The position numbers were made by a program, and so were the translations under genes. From Patescibacteria group bacterium UBA6017 (GTDB lineage: Bacteria; Patescibacteriota; Saccharimonadia; UBA4664): a stretch of DNA of 64,000 nt. The notes under the pieces are model-generated. The model was not told the DNA's origin, did not search any database, and saw nothing but the letters and a program-made list of their open reading frames with translations. Within the stretch, counting starts at the first letter, position 1. Each line of letters opens with the position of its first letter. This document shows, one piece after another, positions 2,102 to 47,894 of this stretch. The stretch is from positions 14,889-78,888 of the forward strand of contig DIZX01000016.1 of assembly GCA_002429485.1 (NCBI GenBank), given 5' to 3'.

Positions 2102-2484
2102 TGGCCGATCTCAAGAACATCGCTCTGACCATCGAGGCAACCCAGACTGCCACCGACCTCAAGCATTGGCTCGGCATCGTCGAGCAGATGGACCGCATCC
2201 GGCTAGGCTTCGCTTACGCGGTCAGGAACAGCCTGGACCTCACGCGCGATGACACTTTCGGCACCCGGGGCGGTAGTAACTACGACACCGGCGGCCTCGA
2301 CCAGGACGGCCTGATGGCCGAGACCGTAAAGATCTACTATCCGGACCCGGACGTCGCCGCCGAGCCCTACCGCGCCGTTGAGACGCTCATGAATAAGGGC
2401 CTGCGCCTACTCGGGGAGCATTGGCAGCAGGGCCTCATCGGCAGTGTCGGCGATTTGATGGCCAGCGCGGCCGACGCGGAATAG
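2101..2484 (+). CDS. Small acidic partner protein (127 aa) of the zinc-hook ATPase. Function unknown.
   Basis: Its start overlaps the ATPase stop codon (TGATG at 2099-2103). Codon usage matches the ATPase gene. A promoter-like AT-rich gap follows. No motif was recognised. Confidence 0.55.
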   Translation: MADLKNIALTIEATQTATDLKHWLGIVEQMDRIRLGFAYAVRNSLDLTRDDTFGTRGGSNYDTGGLDQDGLMAETVKIYYPDPDVAAEPYRAVETLMNKGLRLLGEHWQQGLIGSVGDLMASAADAE

Positions 2485-2624
2485 AGTCACTAATTGTGCG
2501 GATTTGTATCCAATAGCACAATCTTGACTTATCCACAGGCCTTTGAAAGAATAAGCGCTAGCGACATTGTCAGCCGGAACTACTCGCAACACTTTATCAC
2601 CGAGCTAATCGTAAGGGCGCACAC
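2485..2624 (+). promoter_or_regulatory. AT-rich intergenic region, probably holding the promoter of the four-gene Qat-like operon.
   Basis: This is the only AT-rich gap in a stretch that is otherwise about 62% GC. It contains TTGACT ... TATCCA-like hexamers and ends just before the ATG at 2625. Confidence 0.3.
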
Positions 2625-4409: not shown

Positions 4410-5227
4410 TGGGAACCAGCGGAGCCTTCAAAGGAAGCGGCGGAAAGGATGCCGGCAGCCTCCGGGACGCCATCAGTGATTGGCTGGGAGGTGCCGACGA
4501 GGCTCAACAGGGTCAAGCCGACACGACCACAACAGACCAGCCGGCCGAACCCGACCACTTGAACCCCAACGCCCTCGCCCCCGCGGCTCGACTCTGGCTG
4601 CGAGGACCATCGGGCGGTTCCAAGGGTTCGGGAAGCGGAGGCGGGGGTGCAACCAGTGGGGGCGGTGGCTCCGCGGGTGGCGGTAGGTCATCTGGTGGTG
4701 TCCAGCGGACAGTCGGACGCGTTTCCGGACCTGCCGGGCGTGCAGGCGCACTGGCACGTGCCTTTGCGACGGGTGACAGCCCGGCGCTAGAAGAAGCGGG
4801 CCTTAACTACGATGAACTTCGCGCGCTCAATGATCCGCTTGAAGTGGGTCGCAAGATCACCGAGGTGGCTTTTGAAGGCCAACCTGACGGCAGTATCGAA
4901 GACGGCGAGGCACGCTTAATCGTAGCTGAGCTCGTCTCGTGGATCATGGATGCGCCTGACGGTGAGCGGCCCAGTCCCGACCAGATTGTCCGCTACTCAA
5001 TCGAACTTATGATTGCTAAAGCAGCCCTTACCGAAGTGGGCGATACGATCCGTAAGCAATCCGACCCCGTCAAGCGCCAAGAAGCTGAAGCAGAAGTGCG
5101 CCGCGGAGCCAAGGTCCTGGCAGGAAAGCTAGATCTTGATGGAGTAGGACCTAGTGCATCGGACATCGCTCGTAGTATCGAGACAAGTGTGCAGCAGCTG
5201 GTCGATATTCACGGGGACCCGACATGA
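4409..5227 (+). CDS. qatB: Glycine-rich protein of the Qat-type operon (QatB-like).
   Basis: Its ATG overlaps the qatA stop (ATGA). Starts MGTSGAFKGSGG and carries a long Gly/Ser tract (GGSKGSGSGGGGATSGGGGSAGGGRSSGG). The C-terminal half is helical. The next gene starts inside its last codons. Confidence 0.65.
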   Translation: MGTSGAFKGSGGKDAGSLRDAISDWLGGADEAQQGQADTTTTDQPAEPDHLNPNALAPAARLWLRGPSGGSKGSGSGGGGATSGGGGSAGGGRSSGGVQRTVGRVSGPAGRAGALARAFATGDSPALEEAGLNYDELRALNDPLEVGRKITEVAFEGQPDGSIEDGEARLIVAELVSWIMDAPDGERPSPDQIVRYSIELMIAKAALTEVGDTIRKQSDPVKRQEAEAEVRRGAKVLAGKLDLDGVGPSASDIARSIETSVQQLVDIHGDPT

Positions 5228-6501
5228 CCCGACTTGCTCTCGTCATGGATCGAACGCGGATACCGGCCGACACGGACGAGGTCTTCCTTTGGGATGGGGG
5301 AGCCGACCAAAGCTTCAAGACTGGGCTCACTCCCACACTTGCAGAACTAGGCGACGTACCCCCGCTCAATGCGGACGCTGTGAGGATCGCGCTTACAGCC
5401 TACGCGGCCGACCACAGCGTGAAGCGGGAACGTGGCGGTTCCAACTGGAATCGTCGGACTTTGGATCTGCTGGTACCGGTCAGTGATCCCGACGTCTGGG
5501 CAGGTGCGGCCACGGAGCTCATCGATGCTCTCAATTTCCTCACCGGTGACAATTGGAGCCTAAGATTCGTCCAGCATGAAGTTGAGGACAACCAGCACCA
5601 GCTTCTCGCCGATGCACCAGCCCGCGTCGTTTTACTCAGCGGGGGTGCCGATTCGGGAACGGGTGCGGTCATCTCTGCGAGTTCTCTTACACTCAACGAG
5701 TCGCACATTCTCGTATCTCATTCGAGTTCGGGCGCAACCAGCGGTGCGCAGAGAGCCGTCCATGACCGCCTCGAAGCTCTCTTCCCGGGAAAGCAGCCTA
5801 TCCATCGCCAAATCTTCATAGGTCGGGCCAAGAAACGAATCGATGGTACGAACTATCCAGACGAACCATCCAGCCGATCGAGATCATTCTTATTTCTGAC
5901 GCTTGGTCTGGCGGCCGCTGCCCGGTCGGGAGCCACCCTCTGGATCCCAGAGAACGGGTTTGCATCACTAAACCCTCCGCTCGGTCCTGAGCGACTGGGT
6001 GCACTCTCCACTAGGACAACGCACCCATGGTTCCTTTGGAGGCTCCAACAGGCCCTCTCGAAAGTCGGCGCGCACGCCGATCTCGAGAATCCCTTCCAAC
6101 TCGAGACGAAAGGCGAGATGTTTACGCGCGCCTCGGGTGTCCTCGGGAAAGATGGCGCGTCCGCGTTTCTCAGCACTACAAACTCGTGTTCTCACACCGA
6201 CCAGAACTACCAAGGCGTGCCGAGTGGAACTCACTGTGGTGTCTGCTTCGGATGCATCGTCAGGCGCGCTTCCTTCAAGGCCTCCGGGCTCCATGACCAG
6301 ACCCGGTACTTGAGTGCCGAGAGCCGCTACGCCACGTATACCGCGAGCCATTCCATCGTGGAAGCGGTCCGGGACTTCGTAACCCGTGGAATCGACGACG
6401 CCACTGTGCTTGCTATGCCCCTGCCTCCAGGCCTGCTAGCTGGCGGAGCAAAGGAGCTGTGCGTACGCGGCTTGAATGAAATGGAGTCCTACCTGGCATG
6501 A
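5224..6501 (+). CDS. qatC: QueC-like PP-loop ATPase (7-cyano-7-deazaguanine synthase family), QatC-like.
   Basis: PP-loop motif VVLLSGGADSGTGAV (SGGxDS). C-terminal Zn-binding-type cluster HCGVCFGCIVRR (CxxCxxC). Overlaps both of its neighbours. Confidence 0.8.
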   Translation: MTRLALVMDRTRIPADTDEVFLWDGGADQSFKTGLTPTLAELGDVPPLNADAVRIALTAYAADHSVKRERGGSNWNRRTLDLLVPVSDPDVWAGAATELIDALNFLTGDNWSLRFVQHEVEDNQHQLLADAPARVVLLSGGADSGTGAVISASSLTLNESHILVSHSSSGATSGAQRAVHDRLEALFPGKQPIHRQIFIGRAKKRIDGTNYPDEPSSRSRSFLFLTLGLAAAARSGATLWIPENGFASLNPPLGPERLGALSTRTTHPWFLWRLQQALSKVGAHADLENPFQLETKGEMFTRASGVLGKDGASAFLSTTNSCSHTDQNYQGVPSGTHCGVCFGCIVRRASFKASGLHDQTRYLSAESRYATYTASHSIVEAVRDFVTRGIDDATVLAMPLPPGLLAGGAKELCVRGLNEMESYLA

Positions 6502-7274
6502 AGTTGCCACCACTCGACACGCATGCACACGTGGCTCTCGAGGTCCCGACGCGGGACCTCGAGAGCCTCGGCGCAGCGGTGTTGATCGCTACGCGCAGCG
6601 CAGACGAGTTTGAGAGGGTTAGAGCACGGCATGACCTGGTGAGTGTTTGGGGGCTCGGGTGCCACCCTTCACTGGTTGGTGTCCAGCGATCGTTCGATAG
6701 CGAAAAATTTCGCGCCTTACTTGAATTCACACCATACGTCGCCGAAGTTGGGCTTGATGGGGATTCTCGGGTTCCGCTGGAAAATCAGACCGAAACGCTG
6801 AAAGCTATCCTTGATTGCGTTCGACAAATGCCCAGGGTCGTTTCACTGCACAGCTTCCGCGCGACCACGGACCTACTTAGGGTCCTTGATGTTCAGGATG
6901 GCACGTCGGCCCTCATCCTTCATTGGTGGCTTGGCACGAGGGAGGAGACGACGTGGGCGCTCGAGCTCGGCTGTTACTTCTCGGTCAACTACTCGATGAT
7001 TCGCTCGACGAGCCAATGGCGACAAATTCCACTCGACCGTTTACTTGTCGAGACCGACCATCCATCGGGAGACCGGTTCTCGAGCAGCCCGCGGCAGCCG
7101 GGCCGCGTTCAGGACGTCGAGCGGGCTCTCGGAAAACTCCACGGCCTAAGTGTTGAGAAGGTCCGACTCCAACTCTGGCAGAACTTCGCAGCACTGACAT
7201 CGGCGACCAGTACAGCGCAGATGCTGCCCATCCCCCTACGCAAGATGATCGCGTTCGCACAACAGTCCCAGTAG
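6498..7274 (+). CDS. qatD: TatD-family metal-dependent hydrolase/nuclease, QatD-like.
   Basis: N-terminal LDTHAHV (the TatD DxHxH metal site). HWWLGT motif. C-terminal LLVETDHPS (the TatD ETDxP motif). Its start overlaps the qatC stop. Confidence 0.8.
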   Translation: MKLPPLDTHAHVALEVPTRDLESLGAAVLIATRSADEFERVRARHDLVSVWGLGCHPSLVGVQRSFDSEKFRALLEFTPYVAEVGLDGDSRVPLENQTETLKAILDCVRQMPRVVSLHSFRATTDLLRVLDVQDGTSALILHWWLGTREETTWALELGCYFSVNYSMIRSTSQWRQIPLDRLLVETDHPSGDRFSSSPRQPGRVQDVERALGKLHGLSVEKVRLQLWQNFAALTSATSTAQMLPIPLRKMIAFAQQSQ

Positions 7275-7291
7275 ACACCTGATTGATTTTC

Positions 7292-7301
7292 GGGGGGGGG
7301 G
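7292..7301. repeat. Homopolymeric G10 tract in the gap between the convergent qatD and HTH genes.
   Basis: The sequence reads directly ttttcggggggggggtaacc. Confidence 0.9.
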
Positions 7302-7396
7302 TAACCTCTTGGCATTCTTAACCGGATACCCCCATGCCCAATCAAGAAGACATGTAGCTAGATCTGACGCGCCGAAGGCATGCGTCTACTTGATCT

Positions 7397-7846
7397 TCAT
7401 GTCCCTTTTTGATCGTGTGGTTGACGCATGACCACGCCCCGCCCACGTAACGCCCTCCAGACCGTGGCGCCAGCGACCTCGAACCGTTCGCCCAGCCGGG
7501 CCAGCGACCACCCCTCGCCGTAGAGGCGGACGGCCCGTTCGACCTGCCCTGGGTCGAGGCCTCGTTGTCGAGTCGGCACTCCGGCTCGCCTGATGATCTC
7601 GGAGACCGTCACTCGGTGGATGCCGTGGGCGGCGGCAAGATCCTTCATGTTCGCGCCCGCTACGTACGCCAGGACAATCTCGGTCTGATCGGCGTACGCC
7701 AGTCGGCGCTGTGGCGTGACGTTCAGGCGGACAGCTCCGGAGCTGCTCGGGCCCGGCAACTTCGCCCGGTCTGCCATTGCCTCGTCCGCAAGCGTGACTA
7801 TTTGGGCCGCGAGGGGGTTCGATAGACAACCCCTCAGTTCCACCAT
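7397..7846 (-). mobile_element. Helix-turn-helix protein resembling the N-terminal DNA-binding part of an IS transposase or resolvase (orfA-like). There is no catalytic DDE partner, so it is probably a mobile-element remnant at the edge of the island.
   Basis: Two HTH-like segments: NMKDLAAAHGIHRVTVSEIIRRAG and GWSLARLGERFEVAGATVWRALRGRG. No adjacent ORF with a DDE/recombinase domain. It sits exactly where GC content changes from ~62% to ~40%. Confidence 0.45.
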
Positions 7847-7925
7847 TTAGTTCTTTTTACTTTCTCCGAGTTTTCATTAGCTATTCATCTAGAGTCGTGA
7901 TGCTCTTTTTGGTATACTGCCAGGC

Positions 7926-8495
7926 ATGAATCTTATCTTCTCTACCGGTAACTCGGACAAATTCCATACAGCACATAGGGTACTTGAAGAAGCAGGCATA
8001 ACGCTTACACAAGAAAAACTCGATATAGACGAAATCCAGGCCGAGGAGGGCAATGCAATTATCCTAGACAAGTCTGCGAAGGCTTATAGCCTATTATGCC
8101 AGCCAGTAGTAGTCAGTGATGATTCGTGGTCAATCCCAGGCCTGGGCGGCTTCCCCGGACCTTACATGAAATCGATTAATGCGTGGTTCAAGGCGGAAGA
8201 TTTCGAACACCTCACTCGCCCGCTCGAAGACCGTCGAGTCTTTCTGACCAACCGGCTCGCCTACAATGATGGTCATCAGATAAAACTCTTTCACAATCAT
8301 CGTGAGGGAATTCTGCTCAAAGCAAGCCGCGGCCACAGTAGTCATCTGAGCCATCAATTTATTGTGATGGAGGGCGATAATGGGCTGAGTCAGGCCGAGG
8401 CTTACAATCAAGGCGTCGACCAAAACAACCTCGAAAGAGCCGCCATCTGGAGGCAACTAGAGGGTTGGCTAAGGTCTAACATAAAAGCTTCATAG
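7926..8495 (+). CDS. Non-canonical purine NTP pyrophosphatase (Ham1/ITPase/RdgB family).
   Basis: N-terminal STGNSDKFHTA (the TGNxxK motif). VVVSDDSW (the DDSG-like motif). About 190 aa. AT-rich codon usage. Confidence 0.7.
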   Translation: MNLIFSTGNSDKFHTAHRVLEEAGITLTQEKLDIDEIQAEEGNAIILDKSAKAYSLLCQPVVVSDDSWSIPGLGGFPGPYMKSINAWFKAEDFEHLTRPLEDRRVFLTNRLAYNDGHQIKLFHNHREGILLKASRGHSSHLSHQFIVMEGDNGLSQAEAYNQGVDQNNLERAAIWRQLEGWLRSNIKAS

Positions 8496-8504
8496 AACCT
8501 CTAA

Positions 8505-8543
8505 GCGAATCGCAGTGCTAACAGCGCCCACAATGCTCCACCA
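8505..8543. repeat. Copy 1 of a ~39-bp intergenic repeat ending in ATGCTCCACCA (tRNA-3'-end-like).
   Basis: gcgaatcgcagtgctaacagcgcccacaatgctccacca aligns with the copies at 9400-9438 and 9946-9984. Confidence 0.7.
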
Positions 8544-8598
8544 GTTTAGTTTCGTATATTTTTTCGTCCGGCGATAAGCACTTGGTATAATCGAAAGT

Positions 8599-9381
8599 AT
8601 GAATAATCCCGACTCAGACCTCCTTCAACTACTGAAGTCCGCACCAGAGCGCATCGGCTGGGATTTTAGTCGTATAAAAGATGACGTTGAGCCTCGCCCA
8701 TGGGATTATCTATCGATTGTCAAAGCCTGGTTATCTAAGTCTGACCACGTTCTAGACTTAGATACAGGTGGGGGTGAAAAATTTATTGCCTTAGCCGACT
8801 GCTACAAGTCTGGCTTTGCAACCGACTCGTCCGCCGAGCAGATTCAAGTTTGCAATCAAAATCTAGCCGTATCATTACGGAATAATATTCAGTTTGTGCA
8901 GTCCGACGCCCGCAAACTTACTGCGTTTGATGATGCCTCTTTCGATAAAGTCATCAATCGTCACGGCGCATTCTCATTGGCTGAGGCTTATAGAGTTCTC
9001 AAGCCAGGTGGGATATTTATTACTCAACAAGTTGGCGAAAAGAATACCTTGAACGTTTACGGCGCCTTTGGGTACTCGGACGCCACCGCCTATTGGCGTT
9101 CACGCGATGTCGAGACGGAGACTTGGTCGAGCATTGTAGAAGGGCTGATAAAGTCGGATTTCGAAGTGGTAGCGAAAGGCGAGTACAATTTAGATTATTA
9201 CTTCCTTGGCAACGAGAGTTTTATTTTTTGGCTGAAAGCGATCGAGATACCGTATCCTTTCGAACCGGAACAGCACGTTGAAATCATAAAAAAGTTCATT
9301 GCTGAAAACCAAACTGAACGGGGCATTAAAACCAATGAGCAGAGGCATCTGCTCATTTTACGGAAACCTAGGCATAACTAG
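8599..9381 (+). CDS. Class I SAM-dependent methyltransferase.
   Basis: Motif I VLDLDTGGGE. Acidic motif II. LKPGGIF motif. A -10-like TATAAT lies 13 nt upstream. Confidence 0.7.
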   Translation: MNNPDSDLLQLLKSAPERIGWDFSRIKDDVEPRPWDYLSIVKAWLSKSDHVLDLDTGGGEKFIALADCYKSGFATDSSAEQIQVCNQNLAVSLRNNIQFVQSDARKLTAFDDASFDKVINRHGAFSLAEAYRVLKPGGIFITQQVGEKNTLNVYGAFGYSDATAYWRSRDVETETWSSIVEGLIKSDFEVVAKGEYNLDYYFLGNESFIFWLKAIEIPYPFEPEQHVEIIKKFIAENQTERGIKTNEQRHLLILRKPRHN

Positions 9382-9399
9382 CCCAACCCCTGCATCTGA

Positions 9400-9438
9400 G
9401 CGTATCGTAGTTCGAACAACGTTAACCATGCTCCACCA
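9400..9438. repeat. Copy 2 of the ~39-bp repeat ending in ATGCTCCACCA.
   Basis: gcgtatcgtagttcgaacaacgttaaccatgctccacca is about 80% identical to copy 3. Confidence 0.7.
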
Positions 9439-9482
9439 TATAGCCATATTTACTGCGTTTCAGCGCAATATAGCATTACATC

Positions 9483-9502
9483 AAGAGCCGTGAGGCTCTT
9501 TT
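9483..9502 (+). terminator. Hairpin GAGCC-GTGA-GGCTC followed by a T-run. Intrinsic terminator module, shared with the copy at 9997-10022.
   Basis: aagagccgtgaggctcttttggtat: perfect 5-6 bp GC-rich stem, GTGA loop, T-run. Confidence 0.55.
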
Positions 9503-9551
9503 GGTATATCTCAATTTTAGAATCGAAAAATAACTTTGCTAGAATAAATGC

Positions 9552-9896
9552 ATGAAGTTTGTAAATCAATCCCAAGCAGTCGAATTCCGTAACGGTGATA
9601 CCTGTGTCGCATTAGAGTATCAGCTAAATGACGCCGATATCAACGGAGCGGTAATTCGACTATCTGGGCGCTATCCAGAGCAAGGTTTTGCTGTTAATGA
9701 AGTATCGAAAGAACTGGTGTATGTCGTCAAAGGCCAAGGGACGCTTACCGTTGGTGAGACTAGTACTCGTTTAAGTGAAGGTGACATGGCATTGCTTATG
9801 CCTGGCGAGAAGTATTTCTTCGATGGTGAGCTTGTAATGATGATGCCCTGCGCCCCAGCCTGGACGCCGCAGCAGCATAAACTGGTTAGCGATTAA
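9552..9896 (+). CDS. Cupin-domain protein.
   Basis: Small beta-barrel protein with a Gx5HxHx...E-like region (RLSGRYPEQGFAVNE ... LMPGEKYFFDGE). 114 aa. Confidence 0.5.
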   Translation: MKFVNQSQAVEFRNGDTCVALEYQLNDADINGAVIRLSGRYPEQGFAVNEVSKELVYVVKGQGTLTVGETSTRLSEGDMALLMPGEKYFFDGELVMMMPCAPAWTPQQHKLVSD

Positions 9897-9945
9897 TCAC
9901 AGACCGAGGATTCAAAGCATAGCCGACCTCAACCCCCGCTTCGGC

Positions 9946-9984
9946 GCGCATCTTGGTTCGAACAATGCTAATAATGCTCCACCA
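9946..9984. repeat. Copy 3 of the ~39-bp repeat ending in ATGCTCCACCA.
   Basis: gcgcatcttggttcgaacaatgctaataatgctccacca. Contains GGTTCGAAC (T-loop-like) and ends in CTCCACCA. Confidence 0.7.
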
Positions 9985-9996
9985 GCACTAATTAAT

Positions 9997-10022
9997 AAAA
10001 AAGAGCCGTGAGGCTCTTTTTT
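9997..10022. terminator. Bidirectional intrinsic terminator between the convergent cupin gene and guaB. Same hairpin sequence as at 9483.
   Basis: aaaaaagagccgtgaggctctttttt: A-run, GC stem, T-run. Lies between the cupin stop (9896) and the guaB stop (10077). Confidence 0.65.
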
Positions 10023-10076
10023 ATTAAATCGCAGGATTTAAGACCGCAGTTAGTAATGCTCAATAAGCCTGGCCGC

Positions 10077-11591
10077 CTAAGTGCGAACCCCAGATCCGGA
10101 CTCATCCTGGACGATATTGCTCGTACCGCCTTCTACGATTGACTGCCCCGAAACCAGCGTCAGGACTGCATTCTCGGTAAACTCTTTCAAATTCAATGAG
10201 CCTAGGTTGCACATAGTGGAGCGCAGTTTTCCGATAGTTACGCTCAGCATGTCTTTCACCGGCCCGATTACGGGTACATACCCATCAATTCCTTCTTCGA
10301 ACAGCAGGCCGTCGACGGTCTTGCCTTCGCTGTAGCGCTGCCAGTTGCGAGCTCGGTTCGATCCCTCGCCCCAATATGGCTTGAAGATGCTGTTCTTGAT
10401 GGTCACTTTCTGCGTTGGGCTCTCGTCGCTCATCGCGAAGTATCGCCCCATCATCACAAAGTCAGCGCCCATCGCCAGAGCAATAATAATCTGCGTGTCA
10501 TTAGCCAGCCCGCCATCCGAGCAGATTGGAATATAAATCCCTGTCTCTTCGAGGTATCGGTTGCGTTCAGCCACAACGTCCAATAGCGCGGAGGCCTGGC
10601 CCCGGCCAATGCCTTTTTGTTCGCGGGTAATGCAGATGGATCCGCCGCCGATGCCAACCTTGACGAAGTCGACTTTGGCTTCTTCTGCCAGATATCGAAA
10701 ACCCTCTGCCGAGACAACGTTGCCGGCGCCTATAACAATCGAATCGCCGTACTTCTCCCGAGCCCAGAGTGCGGCATCGCGTTGGTATTCAGAGAAACCA
10801 TCCGAGGAATCAAATGCAACAATATCTACTCCTGCCTCCATCAGCGCCGGCAGTCGGACTTCGTAGTCGTGAGTATTTATACCTGCGGCCGCTACTAACC
10901 TCTTTTCGTTGTCGAGCAGCTCAAGCGGGTTGTTCTTGTGGGCAACATAATCTTTCTTGAACACAATCGAGTTCAGCTTGCCGTCTTTTTCCAAAATCGG
11001 CAGAGCTTCTTTTTTGTGTTTATGGAGCAATTCATTTGCCGATCTGAGCCCAATTCCTATTTCGCCGAAAATTACCTTTTCTTTTGGCGTCATGTGCGAG
11101 CTGACTATCGAGCTAAGATCGTCTTCAAACTCCCAGAAATCGTTATCAGTAATAATTCCCTCGAACATGCCGGTGGGCGAGCCGTCGCTGGTGACCGCAA
11201 CCGTTGAGTGCCCTTCGCGGCGCATGAGATCCAGCAATTCACGCAAGGTTGCGCCTGGTTTGACGTTTAAGGTGCTCTTAACGAACCCGGCTTTGTGCAA
11301 TTTAATCTTGGAGATCATCGCGGCCTGGGCTTCGATTGTCTGCGAACAGAATACAAAAGCCGCCCCGCCCTGTCGGGCCAGGGCTACGCCCATATCAACC
11401 CCGGAGACGGCCTGCATGCTGGCAGATACCACTGGAAGATTCAACTGGAGCCGACTCGTCTCGCCCTTCTTAAATTTGGCAACGGGCGCCAAGAGGGAGA
11501 CATTCGAGGTCATATGAATCTTTTTTGTGAGCCGGGGGATTAAAAGATACTCAGAAAACGTTCGGGAAAAACCATCAAGTACATGTGACAT
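10077..11591 (-). CDS. guaB: Inosine-5'-monophosphate dehydrogenase.
   Basis: Catalytic loop GIGGGSICITREQKGIGRGQ. CBS-domain insert. N-terminal TFSEYLLIP. The ORF-track start at 11729 looks over-extended. The Met at 11591 (MSHVLDGFSRTF...) matches the conserved IMPDH N-terminus. Confidence 0.9.
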   Translation of the reverse strand: MSHVLDGFSRTFSEYLLIPRLTKKIHMTSNVSLLAPVAKFKKGETSRLQLNLPVVSASMQAVSGVDMGVALARQGGAAFVFCSQTIEAQAAMISKIKLHKAGFVKSTLNVKPGATLRELLDLMRREGHSTVAVTSDGSPTGMFEGIITDNDFWEFEDDLSSIVSSHMTPKEKVIFGEIGIGLRSANELLHKHKKEALPILEKDGKLNSIVFKKDYVAHKNNPLELLDNEKRLVAAAGINTHDYEVRLPALMEAGVDIVAFDSSDGFSEYQRDAALWAREKYGDSIVIGAGNVVSAEGFRYLAEEAKVDFVKVGIGGGSICITREQKGIGRGQASALLDVVAERNRYLEETGIYIPICSDGGLANDTQIIIALAMGADFVMMGRYFAMSDESPTQKVTIKNSIFKPYWGEGSNRARNWQRYSEGKTVDGLLFEEGIDGYVPVIGPVKDMLSVTIGKLRSTMCNLGSLNLKEFTENAVLTLVSGQSIVEGGTSNIVQDESGSGVRT

Positions 11592-18425: not shown

Positions 18426-18569
18426 CTTGAATCCTATTCTTGCTAATTACACGCATCCGTAAGCGTAATAATACATTATACTTAACACCGCCGAGGCTCA
18501 GGCAGCTTGACCTTATAAGCATAAGTGCGATAATTAGTTACAATAAGTAAGGTATATGTAGTAACTATT

Positions 18570-18890
18570 ATGAAGCAAAATTATCTACACGATCAGCGTG
18601 GCATCGCCATGCTACTCGAGTTGGTTCTCGTAGCCGCAGTTCTTGGCCTAGTTGGCGTTGCGGTCTATCAGTCCAGCCATCGCAACAACCCCACGGCTTC
18701 GGTCGCTGGTCAGCAAGCCGCTCCCAATAGTACCGTTGGTCTGGCCAACTCAGCTGCCGCAATTACGCAATCCGAATCAAATTCCGATTCTGTATTGAGT
18801 GCGTCCGCCGATGCATCGGCCAGCCAGGTCACCGAGTCCGATGTTGACGTATCTAACCTTGGAGGCAGCACCAGTGCGAACTCTTTCTAG
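18570..18890 (+). CDS. Small secreted or pilin-like protein with an N-terminal hydrophobic segment (uncertain).
   Basis: N-terminus RGIAMLLELVLVAAVLGLVGVAVY is loosely prepilin-like. The Ser/Ala-rich tail overlaps the next ORF by about 50 nt in another frame. Confidence 0.3.
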   Translation: MKQNYLHDQRGIAMLLELVLVAAVLGLVGVAVYQSSHRNNPTASVAGQQAAPNSTVGLANSAAAITQSESNSDSVLSASADASASQVTESDVDVSNLGGSTSANSF

Positions 18891-39115: not shown

Positions 39116-39532
39116 ATGGAGATTATGATGAAATTTGCCAACCTGCTGCCAGCTACTACCGTCTACGCTCACTGCGATCTGCCCTGCGGTGTTTACGATC
39201 CCGCCCAAGCCCGCATTGAGGCCGAATCAGTCCTCGCCATCTGCAAGAAATACCAGCAATACACCGACAAGGCCGATGAAGTCTTCCGCACTCGCTGCAT
39301 CGTCATCAAAGATGAGCGTGCCGAGCTCGTGAAACGCCATCTCTGGGTGTTGTGGACGGATTACTTCAAGCCCGAGCATCTCGAAGCTCACCCTCAGATC
39401 CACGACCTTTTCTGGCGCGCCACCAAGCAAGCTGGCCAGGCCAAGCACCACACCGATGTCGAAACTGCTCAAAAATTGCTCGAGCTCATCGCCGAGATCA
39501 CCGAAGTCTTCAACGCCACCAAGAAGGCCTAA
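39116..39532 (+). CDS. sodN: Nickel superoxide dismutase precursor.
   Basis: Ni-hook HCDLPCGVYDP directly after an ~18-aa propeptide (MEIMMKFANLLPATTVYA). Four-helix-bundle length of 138 aa. Confidence 0.8.
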   Translation: MEIMMKFANLLPATTVYAHCDLPCGVYDPAQARIEAESVLAICKKYQQYTDKADEVFRTRCIVIKDERAELVKRHLWVLWTDYFKPEHLEAHPQIHDLFWRATKQAGQAKHHTDVETAQKLLELIAEITEVFNATKKA

Positions 39533-39538
39533 ACCTTC

Positions 39539-39820
39539 ATGTCGATTTGGCCCCTCGGAATATATAGGGTAGCGGGGGACAGTATGCTGCCGACATATCA
39601 GCCGGGCGACACCCTCCTGGGCCTGCGCTGGTTCACATCGCGGCCCGGCCAGGTGGTGGTGGCCATAGAGTCCGGACGGCCTGTCATCAAGCGCATCGTC
39701 TCTATCGAGGACACCGCTATCACCCTCGCCGGAGACAATCCCGCCGCCTCCACCGACTCGCGCCACTTCGGCCCTGTCCATAAAAAACAACTAGAAGCCA
39801 AAATACTTGTTAAGATATAA
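39539..39820 (+). CDS. S26-family signal-peptidase-like protease, probably the Ni-SOD maturation peptidase (SodX-like).
   Basis: Catalytic Ser motif GDSMLPT. Lys motif IKRIV. Lies immediately downstream of sodN. Confidence 0.7.
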   Translation: MSIWPLGIYRVAGDSMLPTYQPGDTLLGLRWFTSRPGQVVVAIESGRPVIKRIVSIEDTAITLAGDNPAASTDSRHFGPVHKKQLEAKILVKI

Positions 39821-39823
39821 CCT

Positions 39824-40267
39824 ATGATTCTCAAACCCTTCAAGTACGCCTTCCGAGAGCTGATCATGAACCGCCGCAAACAGATCCCGTTTTGGGTCTT
39901 AGCCGGTTTCTTGCCCACCTTCCTCATAGCCAGACTGCTCGTCGCGAGGTTCCCCGGACTTTTCCTGCACATCCGAGGCACGCACGTGCATCACTTCATC
40001 TACGGGTTCTTTGTGCTGGCTATCATCGGCTTTATTTCCATCCTCTCCGAGCGCGGGCGGCGTATTCAGGCCTTCGTATACGGAGTAGGCCTCGCCCTGG
40101 CCTTTGACGAGTTTGGCATGTGGATGCACCTCACGAACAACTACAATATCGACACCTCCGAGGACGCCCTCGCCTGGATCTTCGCCTTCCTGATATTCCT
40201 CGTCTACGGCATTGGCATGATCCGCCGAGCCATCCCGCACATGAAGCGGCTTCGCCCAGGTCGCTAA
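39824..40267 (+). CDS. Hypothetical membrane protein (four TM helices).
   Basis: Hydrophobic segments with His-rich loops. No recognisable family. Confidence 0.45.
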   Translation: MILKPFKYAFRELIMNRRKQIPFWVLAGFLPTFLIARLLVARFPGLFLHIRGTHVHHFIYGFFVLAIIGFISILSERGRRIQAFVYGVGLALAFDEFGMWMHLTNNYNIDTSEDALAWIFAFLIFLVYGIGMIRRAIPHMKRLRPGR

Positions 40268-40329: not shown

Positions 40330-40404
40330 TGGGGTGTGGCCAAGCGGTAAGGCATCTGATTCTGGATCAGAGGATCCTAGGTTCGAATCCTAGCACCCCA
40401 GCCA
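40330..40404 (+). tRNA. tRNA-Gln (anticodon CTG).
   Basis: TGGGGTGTGGCCAAGCGGTAAGGCATCTGATTCTGGATCAGAGGATCCTAGGTTCGAATCCTAGCACCCCAGCCA. Acceptor stem pairs with 66-72. Anticodon loop TTCTGGA. T-loop TTCGAAT. Encoded CCA. Confidence 0.85.
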
Positions 40405-40418
40405 TTGCACTTATGCTT
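40398..40418. repeat. 21-bp direct repeat (attL-like) overlapping the 3' end of tRNA-Gln.
   Basis: ccagccattgcacttatgctt is identical to 43587-43607. Confidence 0.85.
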
Positions 40419-40604
40419 GAACAACGGCTTGCTCAAGCCGTTGTCTTGTTATTATCGTCATCACGTTAAGTGATTCACGTTCCCAACCCATCTGAATACT
40501 CAAGCGAGTTTTTAGCACTCAGGTGGATCCCCGGCCATCGTTCCGGGGCGGAACGATGGCCGGGCTGTCTGGTCGAACGAGCCCCTAACACGTACGTGCC
40601 CGAA

Positions 40605-41378
40605 CTATGTGAGTTGCGCAGCCTCAAATGCTCGCAGGTTGTCCTCTAAATGCTCAGGCGATTTAGTCCCCGTAAGGACTAGCCCACGAGGGCAGTTATC
40701 GAAGATAAACCTGAATGCCTCGCGCTCAAGCTCGGCTCGGCTCTTTTGTGAGTCGTTGTCTATCAGTTCGCCCATGTTGAACGGACGATTGATGACAACC
40801 GTTTTCCCTCGCTCCAACGCGAGTCTAATGATGGGGAGGAAGGCGGCATTCTTTTGGTTGAAGGGCAGTTGAACGACCTCATATGCGTCGTCTCCACAGA
40901 CCATCTCCCCACTTTCGATATCGCTTACACTTGCGCCGAATCGGGTGATGCCCTGTTCTCGGGCGTAACTCCAGGCTCGCTTTAGGCCGTCGCTTAGGAG
41001 CACGGCCGGAGTTGTTTTGTGAAGCTGAAGCACGTCAATCTGGCCTAGTCTCGTGAGGCTTTGGTCTAGACTCGACCGGAGTGCATCATAGGTATGGTCT
41101 ACGTACGACTGTTGGTCTTCCGCCCGCCAATGCTCTCCGAACTTTGTAGCGATTGTGATATTGCTACGTTGCCCTTGATTCAGCGTTCGCAGCCAATCAC
41201 CCAACCTTGCTTCACTCAGGCCGTAAGATGGCGCTGTATCGTAGTAGCTAATGCCCTGGGAGAAGGCAGACTCGAGAAACGTGGCTGCCGCTTGATCTGA
41301 CGGAATGGGTGATGGCTTGAACCCCCAAGTTCTTCCGATGCCGATAAGACCACACGCTAGTTCTAGGTTGTTTGACAT
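40605..41378 (-). CDS. Aldo/keto reductase family oxidoreductase.
   Basis: AKR N-terminus LGIGRTWGF...YYDTAPSYG. TIM-barrel length of 257 aa. Confidence 0.75.
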   Translation of the reverse strand: MSNNLELACGLIGIGRTWGFKPSPIPSDQAAATFLESAFSQGISYYDTAPSYGLSEARLGDWLRTLNQGQRSNITIATKFGEHWRAEDQQSYVDHTYDALRSSLDQSLTRLGQIDVLQLHKTTPAVLLSDGLKRAWSYAREQGITRFGASVSDIESGEMVCGDDAYEVVQLPFNQKNAAFLPIIRLALERGKTVVINRPFNMGELIDNDSQKSRAELEREAFRFIFDNCPRGLVLTGTKSPEHLEDNLRAFEAAQLT

Positions 41379-41461
41379 GTTTTAAGGGTACTATAAGGTA
41401 TGAGCCTTTACAACCCTGGCATAATATATTATTATATTTTTCCACCGACGAGATACCAGGA

Positions 41462-42586
41462 ATGGGGATCAAAATGCCTCAGCAGTTTGACGTCACGGTT
41501 GTAGGGGCCGGCATAGCCGGCCTGATGCTCACCAAGAAGCTCTCCGAGTTGGGCCTCAAAGTGGCCCTGGTCGAGAAGGAAGCCCAAATGGCTGGAGGGC
41601 CCTCAACTAAGAACGAAGGGTGGCTGCACCGAGGAACCTACCACGCGACGTCGATTAGCGATAAGGACACCGCTATTCAGGTTGCGAGGCGCTGCATTTA
41701 CGGGCACGAGCAGATCCGAGGGTACGCGCCCGAAGCTATCGAGGATATCGACCTCGCCTCGTATGCGTTGGTGAAGGACCCGGAGCGAACGATGGAGGTC
41801 ATCTCTCGATGGGATGAAGCCGGTGTTCGCTACACGAGGGTACCGCTCAAGGAGCTCGCGAGACTGGAGTCGAATGTTAGGACAGGTGAGTTTGCAGACG
41901 TGTTTCAGGTCTACGATCTGGGCATTAACACTCGCCTGCTCTACCGAAAGCTCCTCGCGGCTAGCATGCGAGCCGGTATCGAGATTTTCTTGAATGCCGA
42001 AGTGGTGTTCAATAGCCTCGAGGAGGCGCTGATCGAGAGAGAGGGAGAGAAAATCCCAATAACGTCACGGCTGTTCGTTTATACGGCCGGGTACGGAGTT
42101 CGGGATATCCTCAGGTCAAACTTTGGCATTCTGGTGCCTCTGCGGTACTGGAAGAGCCATCTCACGGTGTTCCCGCGTCTCACGAGGTCATCAGTGTTTT
42201 GTCTCGACCCGCATGAAGCGGGGATGATGAACCACGGCGACTACAGCATCGTGGGGCTCAACGAGGACGCCATGGTGCACGAGAGCCCAGACTTCGAGAT
42301 TTTGGAGGAGGGCAAGGAGAAGGTTTACGCAGCTGCTAGTCGCCTATTCCACAACCTGGACGGCGCTAGAAGCCTGACCGTCGCCTGCATCAAAACCGAC
42401 CTGGCAGACAAGCCCGCTGCTGTCCGCTCGCTCGGCGTCTCAGTTACGGAGCCCTTACGCGGCCACTTCGTCGTACTGCCCGGCAAGATGACCGAGACGC
42501 CCTATATTACCGACGTCGTGGCGAAAATGGTCTATGATAGGATCGATGACGAGATGATCGCTCAGCGCCCGATGGATACCATTTAG
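41462..42586 (+). CDS. FAD-dependent oxidoreductase (GxGxxG dinucleotide-binding fold).
   Basis: FDVTVVGAGIAGLMLTKKL Rossmann motif followed by VALVEKE. Start placed at the ATG at 41462. Confidence 0.65.
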   Translation: MGIKMPQQFDVTVVGAGIAGLMLTKKLSELGLKVALVEKEAQMAGGPSTKNEGWLHRGTYHATSISDKDTAIQVARRCIYGHEQIRGYAPEAIEDIDLASYALVKDPERTMEVISRWDEAGVRYTRVPLKELARLESNVRTGEFADVFQVYDLGINTRLLYRKLLAASMRAGIEIFLNAEVVFNSLEEALIEREGEKIPITSRLFVYTAGYGVRDILRSNFGILVPLRYWKSHLTVFPRLTRSSVFCLDPHEAGMMNHGDYSIVGLNEDAMVHESPDFEILEEGKEKVYAAASRLFHNLDGARSLTVACIKTDLADKPAAVRSLGVSVTEPLRGHFVVLPGKMTETPYITDVVAKMVYDRIDDEMIAQRPMDTI

Positions 42587-42617
42587 CCAACCAGGATACG
42601 GAGGTAGAAAGACATAT

Positions 42618-43244
42618 ATGACTCACGAAGACGTTTTGACAATGATCGATGAACAACGGGCATCAAGGGGGTTCTACGGAGTTTCGGAGCTCTTGGAGTG
42701 GGCCGCGCAGAGCGACAACACCTTTCTTGACCCGTTCTCGATCCTGATCAGTCGGACAGTCAAGCTCGGTCGAGACAATGTTTTCTACCCCAATGTCATA
42801 CTCGAGGTGAAGAACGGCGGAGAGCTGACTCTCGGAAATAGCAATGTGCTCTACCCGAGCACTCTCATGATCGCCGAGCGAGGCAAGATTTTCATTGCCA
42901 ACGGCAACCAGCTCGGCGACGGCGGGTGCAGTCTGAAGGCGAACATGCCCGACGCTGTCATCACCGTGGGCGACAACGGCCGCTACATGAGCGGCGCCCA
43001 GGTGATAGGCCGAACCGCGCTTGGCTCCGGCTCTCAGGTACTCGGCCTGATCACCGTCCAAAACTGCACGCTAGAAGGTGGTGGTGACTACCGGTCTGCC
43101 GACCCCGACGCACGAGCAGGTCTCCTGAAAGGGTCAGGCCTAGCCAGAAATATCACCGTTCCTGTGGGCAAGGTGCTCAATGGTTCGAGGATGTTCGAAG
43201 AGTCCCAGACCGAAGACCAATCGAAGTACCACCCCAAGAAGTAG
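42618..43244 (+). CDS. Hypothetical protein with repetitive beta-strand (beta-helix-like) segments.
   Basis: Repeated short G/N-rich strands (LGNSNVLY, IANGNQLGDGG, VGDNGRYMSGAQVIG). A terminator hairpin follows at 43272-43330. Confidence 0.45.
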   Translation: MTHEDVLTMIDEQRASRGFYGVSELLEWAAQSDNTFLDPFSILISRTVKLGRDNVFYPNVILEVKNGGELTLGNSNVLYPSTLMIAERGKIFIANGNQLGDGGCSLKANMPDAVITVGDNGRYMSGAQVIGRTALGSGSQVLGLITVQNCTLEGGGDYRSADPDARAGLLKGSGLARNITVPVGKVLNGSRMFEESQTEDQSKYHPKK

Positions 43245-43586
43245 CCGGGGCCTCTGTACTATCCATTCGCACCCTCCCACTACAACGACGTAACGGGAGG
43301 GTGCTCAACCCTTTGGAATTATTTTTTATAAATCCTTACGAAACGAGGGGTAAAGCGCATTCATGCGCTTGTGGGTAATGAAGGGACTCTCAATTATGCA
43401 AAGCTCCCGGCACTTATCGAGATCCCGTATGAAAACCGGATAAAACGTCCGCTCATCGAACAACTTCGACGCCAAAAGGTTGGTAGGGGAGACGCGATCT
43501 GGTCATAGTAAAACCCTAGCGCCTCCAATCTTTCGGCCAACTGAACTAAGCTGGAGTAGATCTGGTTCCACCTGAGGGATAGCTCG

Positions 43587-43607
43587 CCAGCCATTGCACT
43601 TATGCTT
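43587..43607. repeat. 21-bp direct repeat (attR-like), identical to 40398-40418. The sequence just upstream of it weakly resembles the tRNA-Gln T-arm.
   Basis: ccagccattgcacttatgctt. Preceded by ggttccacctgagggatagctcg (compare ggttcgaatcctagcacc in the tRNA). Confidence 0.85.
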
Positions 43608-43627
43608 TTACCTTCTACAATGTAATT

Positions 43628-44266
43628 ATGCCACCAGTCACACCTGAACCAGAAAAATCAGCCGAACTGCCCACTGCCGAGCCAATCAAGAAAAAACATA
43701 TTGTTAGGAACATAATCCTTGCGCTGGTTGCCGTCGCCTTCCTGGGCGTAGCGGGTGTAGTTGCTTATATAGGTTTCGTCCTTGTTACTGCGTCAAATGA
43801 CTGCTCTTCCCGGACTGCTGAGCTAGAGACTATGGTTAAGCAAAATATTGCGTACCTGGATGGCATCACAATTCTTGATGGGCAACGACAAAATGCCTCC
43901 GGAGCCCCAGATGGTGACTGCTTAACGGGTCATGGCGGCCCGGCTACTGTTTTCTACCCTGTCTCAGGAAACGTCACAGATGTAAACGCGCAAGTTACCC
44001 GAAATATTAAGCAACGCGGTTTTGAGATGTCGTCGAAGTTCTATAACGATGGCCCGGGTAACACATCCGTAACGGACATTTGGACGACCGCAACGGACGG
44101 TAAAAATTCTTTAGAAATTAGGTACAAACTCAGTCAACCGTATAACTGTCCTGACACCAACCCCGCCTGCGCCGGTGAAGGAATTATCGAACAAGCCAAA
44201 CTCCTAACTTATCCAACTAGGCAAGTTACAGTTATATTGGGTGGAGTAATTGTCAGGCCCTATTGA
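43628..44266 (+). CDS. Membrane-anchored hypothetical protein with an extracytoplasmic Cys-containing domain.
   Basis: N-terminal TM helix IILALVAVAFLGVAGVVAYIGFVLV. 212 aa. Confidence 0.45.
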   Translation: MPPVTPEPEKSAELPTAEPIKKKHIVRNIILALVAVAFLGVAGVVAYIGFVLVTASNDCSSRTAELETMVKQNIAYLDGITILDGQRQNASGAPDGDCLTGHGGPATVFYPVSGNVTDVNAQVTRNIKQRGFEMSSKFYNDGPGNTSVTDIWTTATDGKNSLEIRYKLSQPYNCPDTNPACAGEGIIEQAKLLTYPTRQVTVILGGVIVRPY

Positions 44267-44470
44267 GGGCTATCACAAGCCCTATCAGGACCGAAACCCC
44301 TAGCCGAAATCGCGCTAAACGGCCCCTCGATTGTTAGGAAATTCGACCACAGCCCCAGCCAAGAAACTAGGTTACATTGCTAGGAAACGTAGGCCGACGC
44401 GTCGGGTGAGCTAACCAATAGGTGTTTAACCTCGGTGATAATGGCCAGCCAAAGCACTTTTTGCGGTTAA

Positions 44471-45460
44471 TTAGAGCGTGAGCGCCATCACGGCTTTGAT
44501 GGTATGCATGCGGTTTTCCGCTTGATCAAACACGATGCTGTGTTTGCTTCTAAATACCTCATCAGTCACTTCCAGCGCTTCTAGACCATATTCTTGCTTC
44601 ATATGTAGACCTGTTTCGGTCATTGTGTCATGAAACGCTGGCAAGCAGTGCATAAATTTAACGTCGGGCTTGTTCGTGGTTTTGATCATAGCCATATTTA
44701 CCTGGAAGTCACGCAGCAGTTCGATGCGTTCGGCATATTTATCTTCCTCGCCCATCGAGACCCATATATCGGTGTATATCGCATCGGCACCCGCCACGGC
44801 TTTGGCGATATCGTCCGTAATGGTAACCTTTGCGCCGCTCTTTTTCGCAAATTCATTAGCCTGCGCCACTAGAGTTTCATCCGGGAATAGTGATTTCGGT
44901 GCCGCAATTCTAAAGTCCAACCCCATCTGGGCCGACCCGAGCAGCAGGCTGTTGGCCATATTGTTGCGGCCATCACCCACAAATACCAGCGACAAGCCCC
45001 TCAACTCGCCCACATGCTCCTCGAGCGTCATGAAGTCGGCCAAAATCTGGGTGGGGTGAAATTCATCCGTGAGGCCGTTCCACACCGGTACCCCGGCGTG
45101 CTCCGCCAACCCCTCGACTGTCGAGTGAGCGAAGCCACGAAACTCGATGCCGTCAAACATCCGCCCCAGCACCTTGGCGGTGTCTTCCACGGATTCCTTC
45201 TTGCCGAGCTGAATATCATTCTTGCCCAAAAATTCCGGCGCAATGCCGAGATCGTTCGCTGCTACGGTAAAGGCGCACCTAGTCCTAGTAGAGGTTTTTT
45301 CGAACAACAGCGCGATATTTTTGCCCTCACAGTCGCGGTGCGGGGTGCCTGCCTGCTTGAGTTTCTTATACTGCCTGGCCGTGTCGATCAATAACTGTAT
45401 TTCTTCGGGGGTATAGTCGCTCAATGTTAAGAGAGAGCGGCCTTTTAGCTGACTTTTCAA
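44471..45460 (-). CDS. Ornithine carbamoyltransferase.
   Basis: STRTR carbamoyl-phosphate motif ([10 protein letters not shown]). HCLPA motif. ~330 aa ATCase/OTCase fold. Confidence 0.9.
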
Positions 45461-46294: not shown

Positions 46295-46395
46295 CCGATA
46301 TTCAATGAGCACAGAATCGGCCCGACCTCGTCGATGATGATCCTCCATAGCACTTACGTTTAAAATATAATATCCTTTGACAAAGGGAGCATGCT

Positions 46396-46931: not shown

Positions 46932-47246
46932 ATGTATAATTCTCTTATGAATAAAGTCGACTATCGGTGGATCGGCGTTGGCGCACTGGGAGTATTTGCG
47001 GCAATAAGCCTAGCTGTGTCATCTTCGCTGCTCCGCATGCTTTCGCCAAGTTATAGCTCGGTAATCATTCTTCTTGGCGCCGTAGTAACCATAATCCTCG
47101 CGGAGATATGGGGCGTTATGTATTGGAGAGCCTCTCGAAGCATATTGTCGACGACGACACTCGCTATGATTAATGTCGCAATTTTATGCAACCTAATCTA
47201 TTTAACGCCGGTATTTAGAATTATTTTCAGTCGGCTTTTTAGCTAA
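46932..47246 (+). CDS. Small membrane protein.
   Basis: Three hydrophobic segments. 104 aa. Confidence 0.35.
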   Translation: MYNSLMNKVDYRWIGVGALGVFAAISLAVSSSLLRMLSPSYSSVIILLGAVVTIILAEIWGVMYWRASRSILSTTTLAMINVAILCNLIYLTPVFRIIFSRLFS

Positions 47247-47817: not shown

Positions 47818-47894
47818 CTGGTTCTAGATCGGTAACACTAAAAACCCCGACGCAAGTCGGGGTTTTTAGTGTTTGATATTTGACGGTAAAAAAG

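Follow-up and report, generated by a model that had tools for sequence, protein, structure and literature searches.

What is a 3.2-kb group of accessory genes that lies directly behind a tRNA-Gln gene, is bounded by a perfect 21-bp direct repeat and contains no recombinase? The question is raised by a 64,000-nt stretch of DNA, referred to here as the window, from Patescibacteria group bacterium UBA6017 (GCA_002429485.1, contig DIZX01000016.1, positions 14,889 to 78,888), a member of the Saccharimonadia. A preliminary description of this DNA had proposed a decayed integrative island, or one mobilised in trans. Saccharimonadia (TM7) are epibionts with genomes of about 1 Mb, and the gain and loss of their accessory genes are poorly understood; no paper on integrons or tRNA-anchored arrays in Saccharibacteria/Patescibacteria was found in the literature. 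The 3.2-kb segment, hereafter the islet, is the tRNA-proximal segment of a longer array and not a self-contained element. What is described here is a lineage-specific cassette array anchored at tRNA-Gln, with a defined site of about 50 nt and no known recombinase, and it is more than a lone decayed islet.

The anchor is a tRNA-Gln gene with anticodon CTG and an encoded CCA (40330-40404, plus strand), called by ARAGORN and matched by Rfam RF00005 with 67.9 bits. The 21-mer CCAGCCATTGCACTTATGCTT occurs at 40398-40418 and at 43587-43607, its sole two positions in 64 kb even when 3 mismatches are allowed; no match was obtained in 100 dinucleotide-preserving shuffles, and with 0 copies expected by chance the perfect repeat bounding the islet is confirmed. 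Similarity extends to 28 nt with 2 mismatches (26/28; 40391-40418 versus 43580-43607). As had been read from the letters, and as the ARAGORN and Rfam calls bear out, bases 1-7 of the 21-mer are the end of the tRNA gene, i.e., acceptor CCA, discriminator G and encoded CCA (CCAGCCA, 40398-40404). Together with the 14-nt trailer TTGCACTTATGCTT these bases form the first copy of a repeated unit, R1 (40391-40418, plus strand; nhmmer E = 1e-7, profile match 40391-40421), directly 3′ of which stands a terminator hairpin, ACAACGGCTT..AAGCCGTTGT (40421-40444, plus strand). Closely related hairpins also lie 3′ of the 21-mer in three of the loci from other genomes (denoted by L numbers), namely L019, L021 and L025 (unit at 1149). 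The right boundary of the islet is unit R2 (43564-43607, plus strand; nhmmer E = 2e-9, profile match 43564-43610), in which the exact 21-mer is preceded by an arm, GGTTCCACCTGAGGGATAGCTCG, that is indeed related to the tRNA T-arm, as the preliminary description had suspected. An intact tRNA on one side, and on the other a displaced, directly repeated copy of its 3′ end that has a T-arm-like left arm, are the two marks of a tRNA-island boundary, and they support an insertion at the tRNA 3′ end.

The two perfect copies are not the only ones. A unit profile made from the non-tRNA units gave three significant nhmmer copies in the window (E <= 1e-7) and two weak ones, adding to the pair first described a third significant unit at 44421-44469. 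The order is tRNA-Gln, R1, the three islet genes, R2, a 212-aa gene, R3, R4 and, further on, R5. The 212-aa protein (43628-44266, plus strand) belongs to no family and makes up the second segment of the array. Behind it, R3 (44331-44361, plus strand) is a weak remnant, ..GAAATTCGACCACAGCCCCAGCCA, with a tRNA-like arm and CCAGCCA, the tail being lost (nhmmer E = 0.37), and R4 (44421-44469, plus strand; E = 1e-7) reads GTTTAACCTCGGTGATAATGG, CCAGCCA, AAGCACTT.. in succession. The R4 arm, of a kind termed type B, has near-identical counterparts in L018 and L025, which stand behind different genes. R5 (46345-46364, plus strand) is a possible degenerate unit, CCATAGCACTTACGTTTAAA, in the gap between two small plus-strand open reading frames (ORFs), and its match is weak (E = 0.29). 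Conservation of the units in the window falls with distance from the tRNA.

Arrays of this kind are found behind tRNA-Gln in a subset of Candidatus Saccharimonadia. The loci were collected by exact search with the 21-mer; the arrays sampled are few, and perfect 21-mers are over-represented among them. The 21-mer is present in 5 species-representative genomes, all of Candidatus Saccharimonadia/Saccharibacteria, and in 7 metagenome contigs, always as one copy, and is therefore not a dispersed repeat. With 2 copies in 64 kb and single copies in these genomes and contigs, the idea of a generic repeat was rejected; the many genome-wide copies that the preliminary description had named as evidence against its reading were not observed in the five species representatives. 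At L022, L026, L027 and L029 the 21-mer coincides with the 3′ end and trailer of a tRNA-Gln gene (anticodon CTG or TTG). At L020 and L024, tRNA-Gln is 0.8-1.1 kb further upstream, and the 21-mer stands after a decayed tRNA-like arm and before a terminator. The genes of L020 upstream of and including tRNA-Gln are those of the window (nickel superoxide dismutase (Ni-SOD), S24/S26 peptidase, a membrane protein of ~150 aa, tRNA-Gln), but its cargo between the tRNA and the distal copy is wholly different. The longest arrays are those of L025, where tRNA-Gln(TTG) is followed by 7 units within 4.3 kb with 1-2 co-oriented genes between them (an arrangement also seen in L160), and of L018, a longer contig of the L020 organism, with at least 7 co-oriented units over 8 kb. 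Three units are present in L019 and 2-3 in L024 and L026, the further units of L026 lying 3.7 and 6 kb behind the tRNA.

Across these loci (L018/L020, L024, L025 and L026) the unit bounds unrelated cargo behind tRNA-Gln. In L025 the cargo comprises a 303-aa membrane protein, an EEP-family nuclease, a MazG-like protein, a 148-aa protein, a MazE-Doc pair and a 113-aa membrane protein, with a terminator hairpin after most units. Array cargo in general is accessory, including MazE-Doc, Phd-Doc, Fic, EEP nuclease, PLD, DUF218, GNAT, cupin and MazG-like proteins and many orphans. Co-oriented cassettes of 1-2 ORFs with the site at their 3′ end make up L025 and most of L018; exceptions on the opposite strand are an aldo/keto reductase (AKR) gene and a PLD remnant in the window. 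The MazG-like gene was considered as a marker of arrays and rejected, as it also occurs without units in L161-L165 and L167-L176; on 17 contigs of one species it has a stable non-array context. The region upstream of tRNA-Gln is also variable: window 39116-40267 and L020 have the Ni-SOD, its maturation peptidase and the membrane protein, L027 has an Fe/Mn superoxide dismutase (983-1585), and in L022 and L029 the tRNA gene lies more closely behind a conserved S16-KH-TrmD cluster.

All units align as one family, each ~50 nt long and consisting of a ~30-nt arm related to the T-loop, T-stem and acceptor 3′ strand of tRNA-Gln, then CCAGCCA, then the 14-nt trailer. The tRNA sequence enters this alignment as GGTTCGAATCC and, after a gap, TACCGCCCCAGCCA, and three units set against it read AGTTCGGATAACGTACCATAGCCCCAGCCA, GGTTCTAACTTCGTTAACTAGCCCCAGCCA and GTGTTTAACCTCGGTGATAATGGCCAGCCA. 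Arm variants recur across species behind unrelated genes; the arm TTTAACCTCGGTGATAATGGCCAGCCA, for example, is found behind both the 212-aa gene of the window and the MazG-like gene of L018. In pairwise alignments of units with 200 nt of upstream sequence included, the shared part, irrespective of cargo, runs only from about -20 to -60 nt through CCAGCCA (+7) or slightly into the tail. The most instructive case is the MazG-like cassette of L018 and L025, which is 84% identical from start codon through stop codon and arm, the identity ending right after CCAGCCA; upstream of the gene the two loci share only the 21-mer of the preceding unit. These limits indicate that the arm travels with the gene upstream of it, and the end of homology after CCAGCCA points to a recombination junction at the 3′-terminal CCA of the tRNA.

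Folding and symmetry of the unit were also considered. Ten units folded as single-stranded DNA gave z-scores of -2.0 to +0.6 and no stable hairpins, and attC-like folding was rejected on this basis. The tail corresponds to one half of a perfect 20-nt palindrome, AAGCATAAGT/ACTTATGCTT; most units carry one half, some carry the other or nearly all of it, and the tRNA-proximal site of L020 has almost the whole, which suggests a putative dimeric binding site. This palindrome was the only dyad seen on inspection of the units, none of which showed a dif-like one, and the motif GTTTAAC that opens type-B arms is without a consistent partner. Inverted-looking tails, CCAGCCA followed by AAGCATAAGTAC..., occur at L020 1279-1306 and, on the minus strand, at L018 861-828 and 6825-6792. 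A 12-nt match to the inverted tail at window 18517-18537 (AAGCATAAGTGCGATAATTAG) falls within the promoter region of a pilin-like gene (start at 18571), against a chance expectation of about 0.2 matches. A further property of the tail is a promoter-like element. In R2, TTGCAC and TACAAT separated by 16 nt (43594-43621, plus strand; read from the letters) end 6 nt before the ATG at 43628, so that with its ATG the element spans window 43594-43630; the pattern recurs at L025 3867-3905, the spacers being 16-17 nt and the next ATG 6 nt on. Such an element would yield a leaderless-like transcript; a consensus scan missed it because its -35 box matches at only 3/6 positions.

The content of the islet itself is much as first described, being borne out by Pfam, homologues and a hairpin. 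An AKR gene (40605-41378, minus strand; PF00248, 4e-23), beyond whose 3′ end lies a perfect 16-bp inverted repeat, or hairpin (40530-40564), is divergent from a gene for an FAD-dependent oxidoreductase of the DAO family (41462-42586, plus strand; PF01266, 1e-20), called as 374 aa starting at 41462, with an alternative ATG at 41474. The third gene (42618-43244, plus strand) encodes a 208-aa left-handed beta-helix/hexapeptide-like protein without a Pfam match, whose homologues have Hexapep domains or the JGI name ‘isoleucine patch acetyltransferase-like’; relatives share 60-76% identity with it on other contigs and 45-50% in Proteobacteria, Myxococcota and Actinobacteria. A terminator-like hairpin follows the gene (43269-43304). 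The three genes, here called the trio, are a mobile module in general: the same order (AKR on the minus strand, DAO, 208-aa homologue) is found in L035 inside a tRNA-bounded island with a serine recombinase, and the DAO/208-aa pair is conserved in both L035 and L037, in the latter with the AKR gene 3 kb off. The L035 island (453-11090; GCA_003173865.1, PJMF01000019.1) is ~10 kb long, extends from tRNA-Leu/tRNA-Pro to tRNA-Gly, and has a 526-aa large serine recombinase abutting tRNA-Pro.

Between the terminator-like hairpin and R2 lies a truncated gene. The minus-strand stretch 43335-43493 encodes the N-terminal ~53 aa of a PLD-family (PLDc_2) nuclease, as seen by tblastx/tblastn against the full-length genes of L166, L161, L023 and L018 (E = 1e-14 to 1e-26), and is 57% identical to the L166 protein. 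No start codon is recognised in it, and it stops short of the HKD motif, just beyond the terminator of the 208-aa gene. Between it and the unit is a conserved leader (43508-43594, minus strand) with 79% nucleotide identity to L166 187-273. The 66-aa minus-strand ORF that the preliminary description had placed here (43394-43594) is spurious, a product of this leader and of the PLD remnant read out of frame: it belongs to no protein family, and its only meaningful relative is a 50-aa ORF over the same leader on contig L166. Since the truncated gene adjoins the right-hand unit, the islet is composite: it began as an old segment with a PLD gene, and the arrival of the three-gene module either coincided with the truncation of that gene or preceded it. 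The same truncation supports calling the islet decayed. The earlier proposal of a decayed or trans-mobilised island therefore stands in its architecture and its decay, and falls as regards a self-contained 3.2-kb element.

Is there an enzyme that could have built the array? No recombinase was found in the 64-kb window by tblastn with XerD, lambda Int and gamma-delta resolvase, and precomputed Pfam annotations list no Phage_integrase, Resolvase or Recombinase domain from ~29.8 to 54.3 kb (±10 kb), which confirms the absence of a recombinase from the islet. A cognate integrase, for which a wider search had been recommended, was not found, in a search of limited extent, on any element in nine unit-bearing loci, in contigs flanking type IV secretion system (T4SS) genes or in viral contigs. 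A weak resolvase-like match in L026 was set aside as no recombinase, the ORFs being fragmented and reading by eye as isochorismatase-like, without Pfam confirmation. A T4SS cluster beside the L023 unit was likewise rejected as proof of an integrative and conjugative element (ICE): its coupling protein has 400 relatives across Saccharimonadia, and the 21.8-kb L023 contig has no integrase and no tRNA. T4SS genes beside units (L023, L166) are not evidence of an ICE because the core is conserved across Saccharimonadia and the flanks are variable. This core (L030 1-12700; L033 1-12673; L166 1-9968) comprises pilin, TrbL, TraC-like, VirB4-like, CHAP and coupling proteins, and the flanks are defence-like, with reverse transcriptase, RadC, Xre-type helix-turn-helix pairs, DNA methylase, a HATPase protein and T5orf172.

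The account that we favour, with somewhat more belief than doubt, is accretion by site-specific recombination at the 3′ end of tRNA-Gln, with an enzyme that acts in trans or has been lost, and with an islet that has since decayed. An incoming DNA circle carrying one unit would recombine at the tRNA-Gln 3′ end and be joined directly behind the encoded CCA; the insertion would rebuild the tRNA and push the previous trailer and all older segments distally, and successive insertions would produce a co-oriented array. Its source may be an unlinked gene of the same genome or a transient element, unless the enzyme has disappeared. In the first segment of the window, the remainder of the PLD gene would have been replaced by the redox/acyltransferase-like module of AKR, DAO and hexapeptide-like genes. 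We infer this mechanism, with its direction of growth and its action in trans, from the arrangement of units and homology breakpoints, and the islet too would have been mobile, in cis or in trans. Its excision would be expected to leave the empty site ...GGTTCGAATCCTAGCACCCCAGCCATTGCACTTATGCTTTTACCTTCTACAATGTAATTATGCC and a circle with the junction ...CTGGTTCCACCTGAGGGATAGCTCGCCAGCCATTGCACTTATGCTTGAACAACGGCTTGCTCAAGCCGTT.

Several observations weigh against accretion by recombination. No circular form was found, and no orthologous empty site; the comparison at tRNA-Gln that had been suggested turned up neither an empty site nor an islet-free strain among the relatives compared, and all strains at least 99.4% identical carry the islet, without polymorphism. 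L027 has the tRNA and 21-mer with no further unit in 6.3 kb, but non-orthologous genes lie downstream. The ±10 kb around each array examined contain no tyrosine or serine recombinase of known class, and no viral contig has the 21-mer, looser versions of it or a match to the unit profile. A simple gradient with the newest units proximal is contradicted by L025, in which divergence is greatest in the proximal unit and the distal unit is perfect. The position of the junction rests on one shared cassette and several short unit pairs, and the conservation of the 21-mer is partly a matter of ascertainment because the loci were found by exact match. Finally, the islet has a GC content of 0.53-0.58, equal to that of the host, and is only 63-69% identical at the DNA level to its closest relatives; the insertion is therefore not demonstrably recent, and the perfection of R1 and R2 has more likely been kept by function than by youth.

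Two related possibilities were considered and rejected. Cassette polymorphism at strain level was not borne out, as L014 differs by small indels only and the differences of another metagenome-assembled genome (MAG) from the UBA set are scaffold gaps at the repeat. This otherwise 99.4%-identical strain has a ~190-nt insertion (L014 4640-4825, corresponding to window 46934-46942), which alters the calls of small ORFs downstream of the MazG-like gene. A phage or viral origin was also rejected, no viral contig having the 21-mer, its looser versions, the unit profile or the PLD family; the generic pattern of a tRNA-Gln 3′ end is met in 120 unrelated viral loci and is uninformative.

Among other explanations, the one that survives best, though we regard it as unlikely, is that the segments are independently decayed stumps of larger integrase-bearing elements (prophages, ICEs or islands). 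These very small genomes would have lost the integrases and the bulk of each element by deletion and kept att remnants together with a handful of useful genes. Deletion or replacement has evidently occurred at the window unit with the truncated gene, the same trio lies in the L035 island beside a 526-aa serine recombinase, and tycheposon islands contain degenerated elements and scattered partial tRNAs (bioRxiv 10.1101/2020.12.28.424599). However, the screens used found no integrase fragments in ~30 segments across 9 loci, and the segments are small (0.4-3.7 kb) and mostly intact units of 1-2 genes with terminators of their own. Behind unrelated genes, arms are conserved between species over ~30-60 nt, as a functional site would be and random stumps would not, and the L035 island sits at tRNA-Pro/tRNA-Gly without the unit.

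It is less probable still, and in our judgement quite unlikely, that no dedicated recombinase is involved and that the units are copies of the native trailer and terminator of tRNA-Gln, serving as portable homology for DNA that has been taken up. Exchange would then be RecA-dependent, or would proceed by homology-facilitated illegitimate recombination, via the units and the tRNA. Natural competence has been reported in Saccharibacteria, no recombinase is nearby, the 21-mer and the related terminator hairpin form a ~50-nt block in four genomes, and units of 50-70 nt plus a 75-nt tRNA are long enough to act as short homology arms. This mechanism could shuffle segments among existing units, but it leaves unexplained both the origin of the co-oriented tail copies and the fixed break of homology just after CCAGCCA.

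A bolder and very doubtful possibility is that the strand-transfer enzyme is the small PLD protein with a single HKD motif, so that the islet would be a copy with a destroyed enzyme gene, movable only in trans. Intact PLD genes (150-166 aa, one HKD) adjoin units in L166, L023 and L018, and in these loci, as in the window remnant, the gene lies on the opposite strand, 70-130 nt from the arm and reading away from it. The linkage is old because the PLD proteins share only 45-64% identity and the adjoining arms have diverged too. A tail that is half of a 20-nt palindrome would suit a dimer with one shared active site. Nucleases of the PLD family act via a covalent phosphohistidine-DNA intermediate, and BfiI catalyses DNA transesterification (PMC4081073). 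On the other hand, the arrays of L025/L160 and L019 have no PLD gene within the available sequence, the gene is present without a unit in L161, and the linkage could merely reflect an old, common cassette. The database matches of the protein are only to PLD nuclease domains of the defence proteins MkoC, MkoB and DrmC, with no NCBIfam match and no close solved structure, and no DNA-binding domain is recognisable in its ~160 aa. We know of no PLD-family recombinase. Equally speculative, and deserving little credence at present, is the wider proposal of a Saccharimonadia cassette-capture system with tRNA-Gln as the docking point, tail mimics of ~50 nt as cassette sites and a recombinase outside the tyrosine and serine families, for which the PLD protein would be the leading candidate. 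That the two 21-mers are a chance match or a meaningless local duplication, for which only the small size of the repeat speaks, can be dismissed, since none are expected by chance and the 21-mer and arm family stand at segment boundaries in many independent genomes.

Some features of the surroundings complete the picture of the window. An ornithine carbamoyltransferase gene (44471-45460, minus strand) lies between R4 and the degenerate R5, in a stretch whose GC content (0.44-0.49) is below that of the rest of the window. A very strong bidirectional terminator with an 18-bp stem is found at 47834-47873; weak Rfam matches to small RNAs at this position (psRNA14, BSnc120) are far below gathering scores and probably reflect the hairpin only, and the Rfam scan of the region gave no RNA family besides tRNA. 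Assemblies break or duplicate exactly at the 21-mer or unit (L013 1-260 versus 408-5653; L004 10544-11582), contigs end at units in L019, L023, L160 and L166, and the MAG GCA_002413465.1 has its scaffold gaps at the repeat, which is therefore a source of MAG fragmentation.

Such breaks matter for MAG quality, and the unit sequence provides a simple marker for array regions. An array of this type would be a defined hot spot of gene flux in the Saccharimonadia, and the value of the finding hinges on the identity of the enzyme and on demonstrated movement. If an unlinked or unconventional enzyme acts in trans, the array would be an integron-like capture device with a different site and possibly a different enzyme, and its conserved 50-nt unit could then give genetic tools a landing pad in bacteria that are hard to manipulate. 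A system run by the PLD protein would give the candidate phyla radiation (CPR) a functional counterpart of integrons, with a new strand-transfer chemistry through a phosphohistidine intermediate. If, conversely, the arrays are only debris of ordinary integrative elements, they would be a CPR example of tRNA-anchored island growth of the Prochlorococcus type.

How does the locus compare with known systems? It lacks defining features of integrons, classical integrase islands and tycheposons, and has other features in common with each. Like Islander-type tRNA islands, it has an intact tRNA, a displaced 3′ end as direct repeat, accessory cargo and an identity block over the tRNA terminus. It differs in that no integrase lies in or near the segment, the gene at the att-like unit being the PLD remnant; the identity block covers only 7 nt of tRNA and 14 nt of trailer, and the segments, only 0.4-3.7 kb long, form stacks of as many as 7 or more. 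Tycheposons of Prochlorococcus form tRNA-anchored islands that grow by repeated integration and leave partial tRNAs behind (Hackl et al., bioRxiv 10.1101/2020.12.28.424599). The arrays resemble these islands in the proximal tRNA, the distal displacement of older material, the internal partial tRNA copies, the degenerated elements and the streamlined host genome. However, tycheposons carry tyrosine recombinases and replication modules and are also seen as intact copies, whereas no locus here holds a recombinase-bearing element or a replication/packaging module, units recur at regular intervals with 1-2 genes in between, and the host belongs to the CPR.

Two classes of element that rely on enzymes supplied from elsewhere are also instructive. 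Cis-mobilisable elements (CIMEs) are att-flanked, lack integration and transfer genes, and were described beside streptococcal ICEs. The islet likewise has att-like flanks without integrase or conjugation genes, and is plausibly decayed and movable by a related recombinase, but no cognate ICE or integrase was found for it, and many tandem units take the place of one ICE-adjoining element. Integrative mobile elements exploiting Xer (IMEX) and pdif modules are similar in being integrase-less with short conserved boundary sites, their movers being host-encoded and acting in trans; here the units do not have the 11-6-11 dif-like architecture by inspection, and the site is a tRNA 3′ end. Integrons have IntI, attI and the cassette promoter Pc, none of which is present, and the anchor here is instead a tRNA gene. 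The units are neither imperfect palindromes nor prone to folding, the junction follows CCAGCCA in place of G|TTRRRY, and the cassettes have their own terminators and promoter-like sequences, with some genes on the other strand. What recalls integrons is a cargo rich in toxin-antitoxin, acetyltransferase and orphan genes and, in L025 and most of L018, co-oriented cassettes of 1-2 genes with a site at the 3′ end; an array without an adjacent integrase resembles the clusters of attC sites lacking an integron integrase (CALIN).

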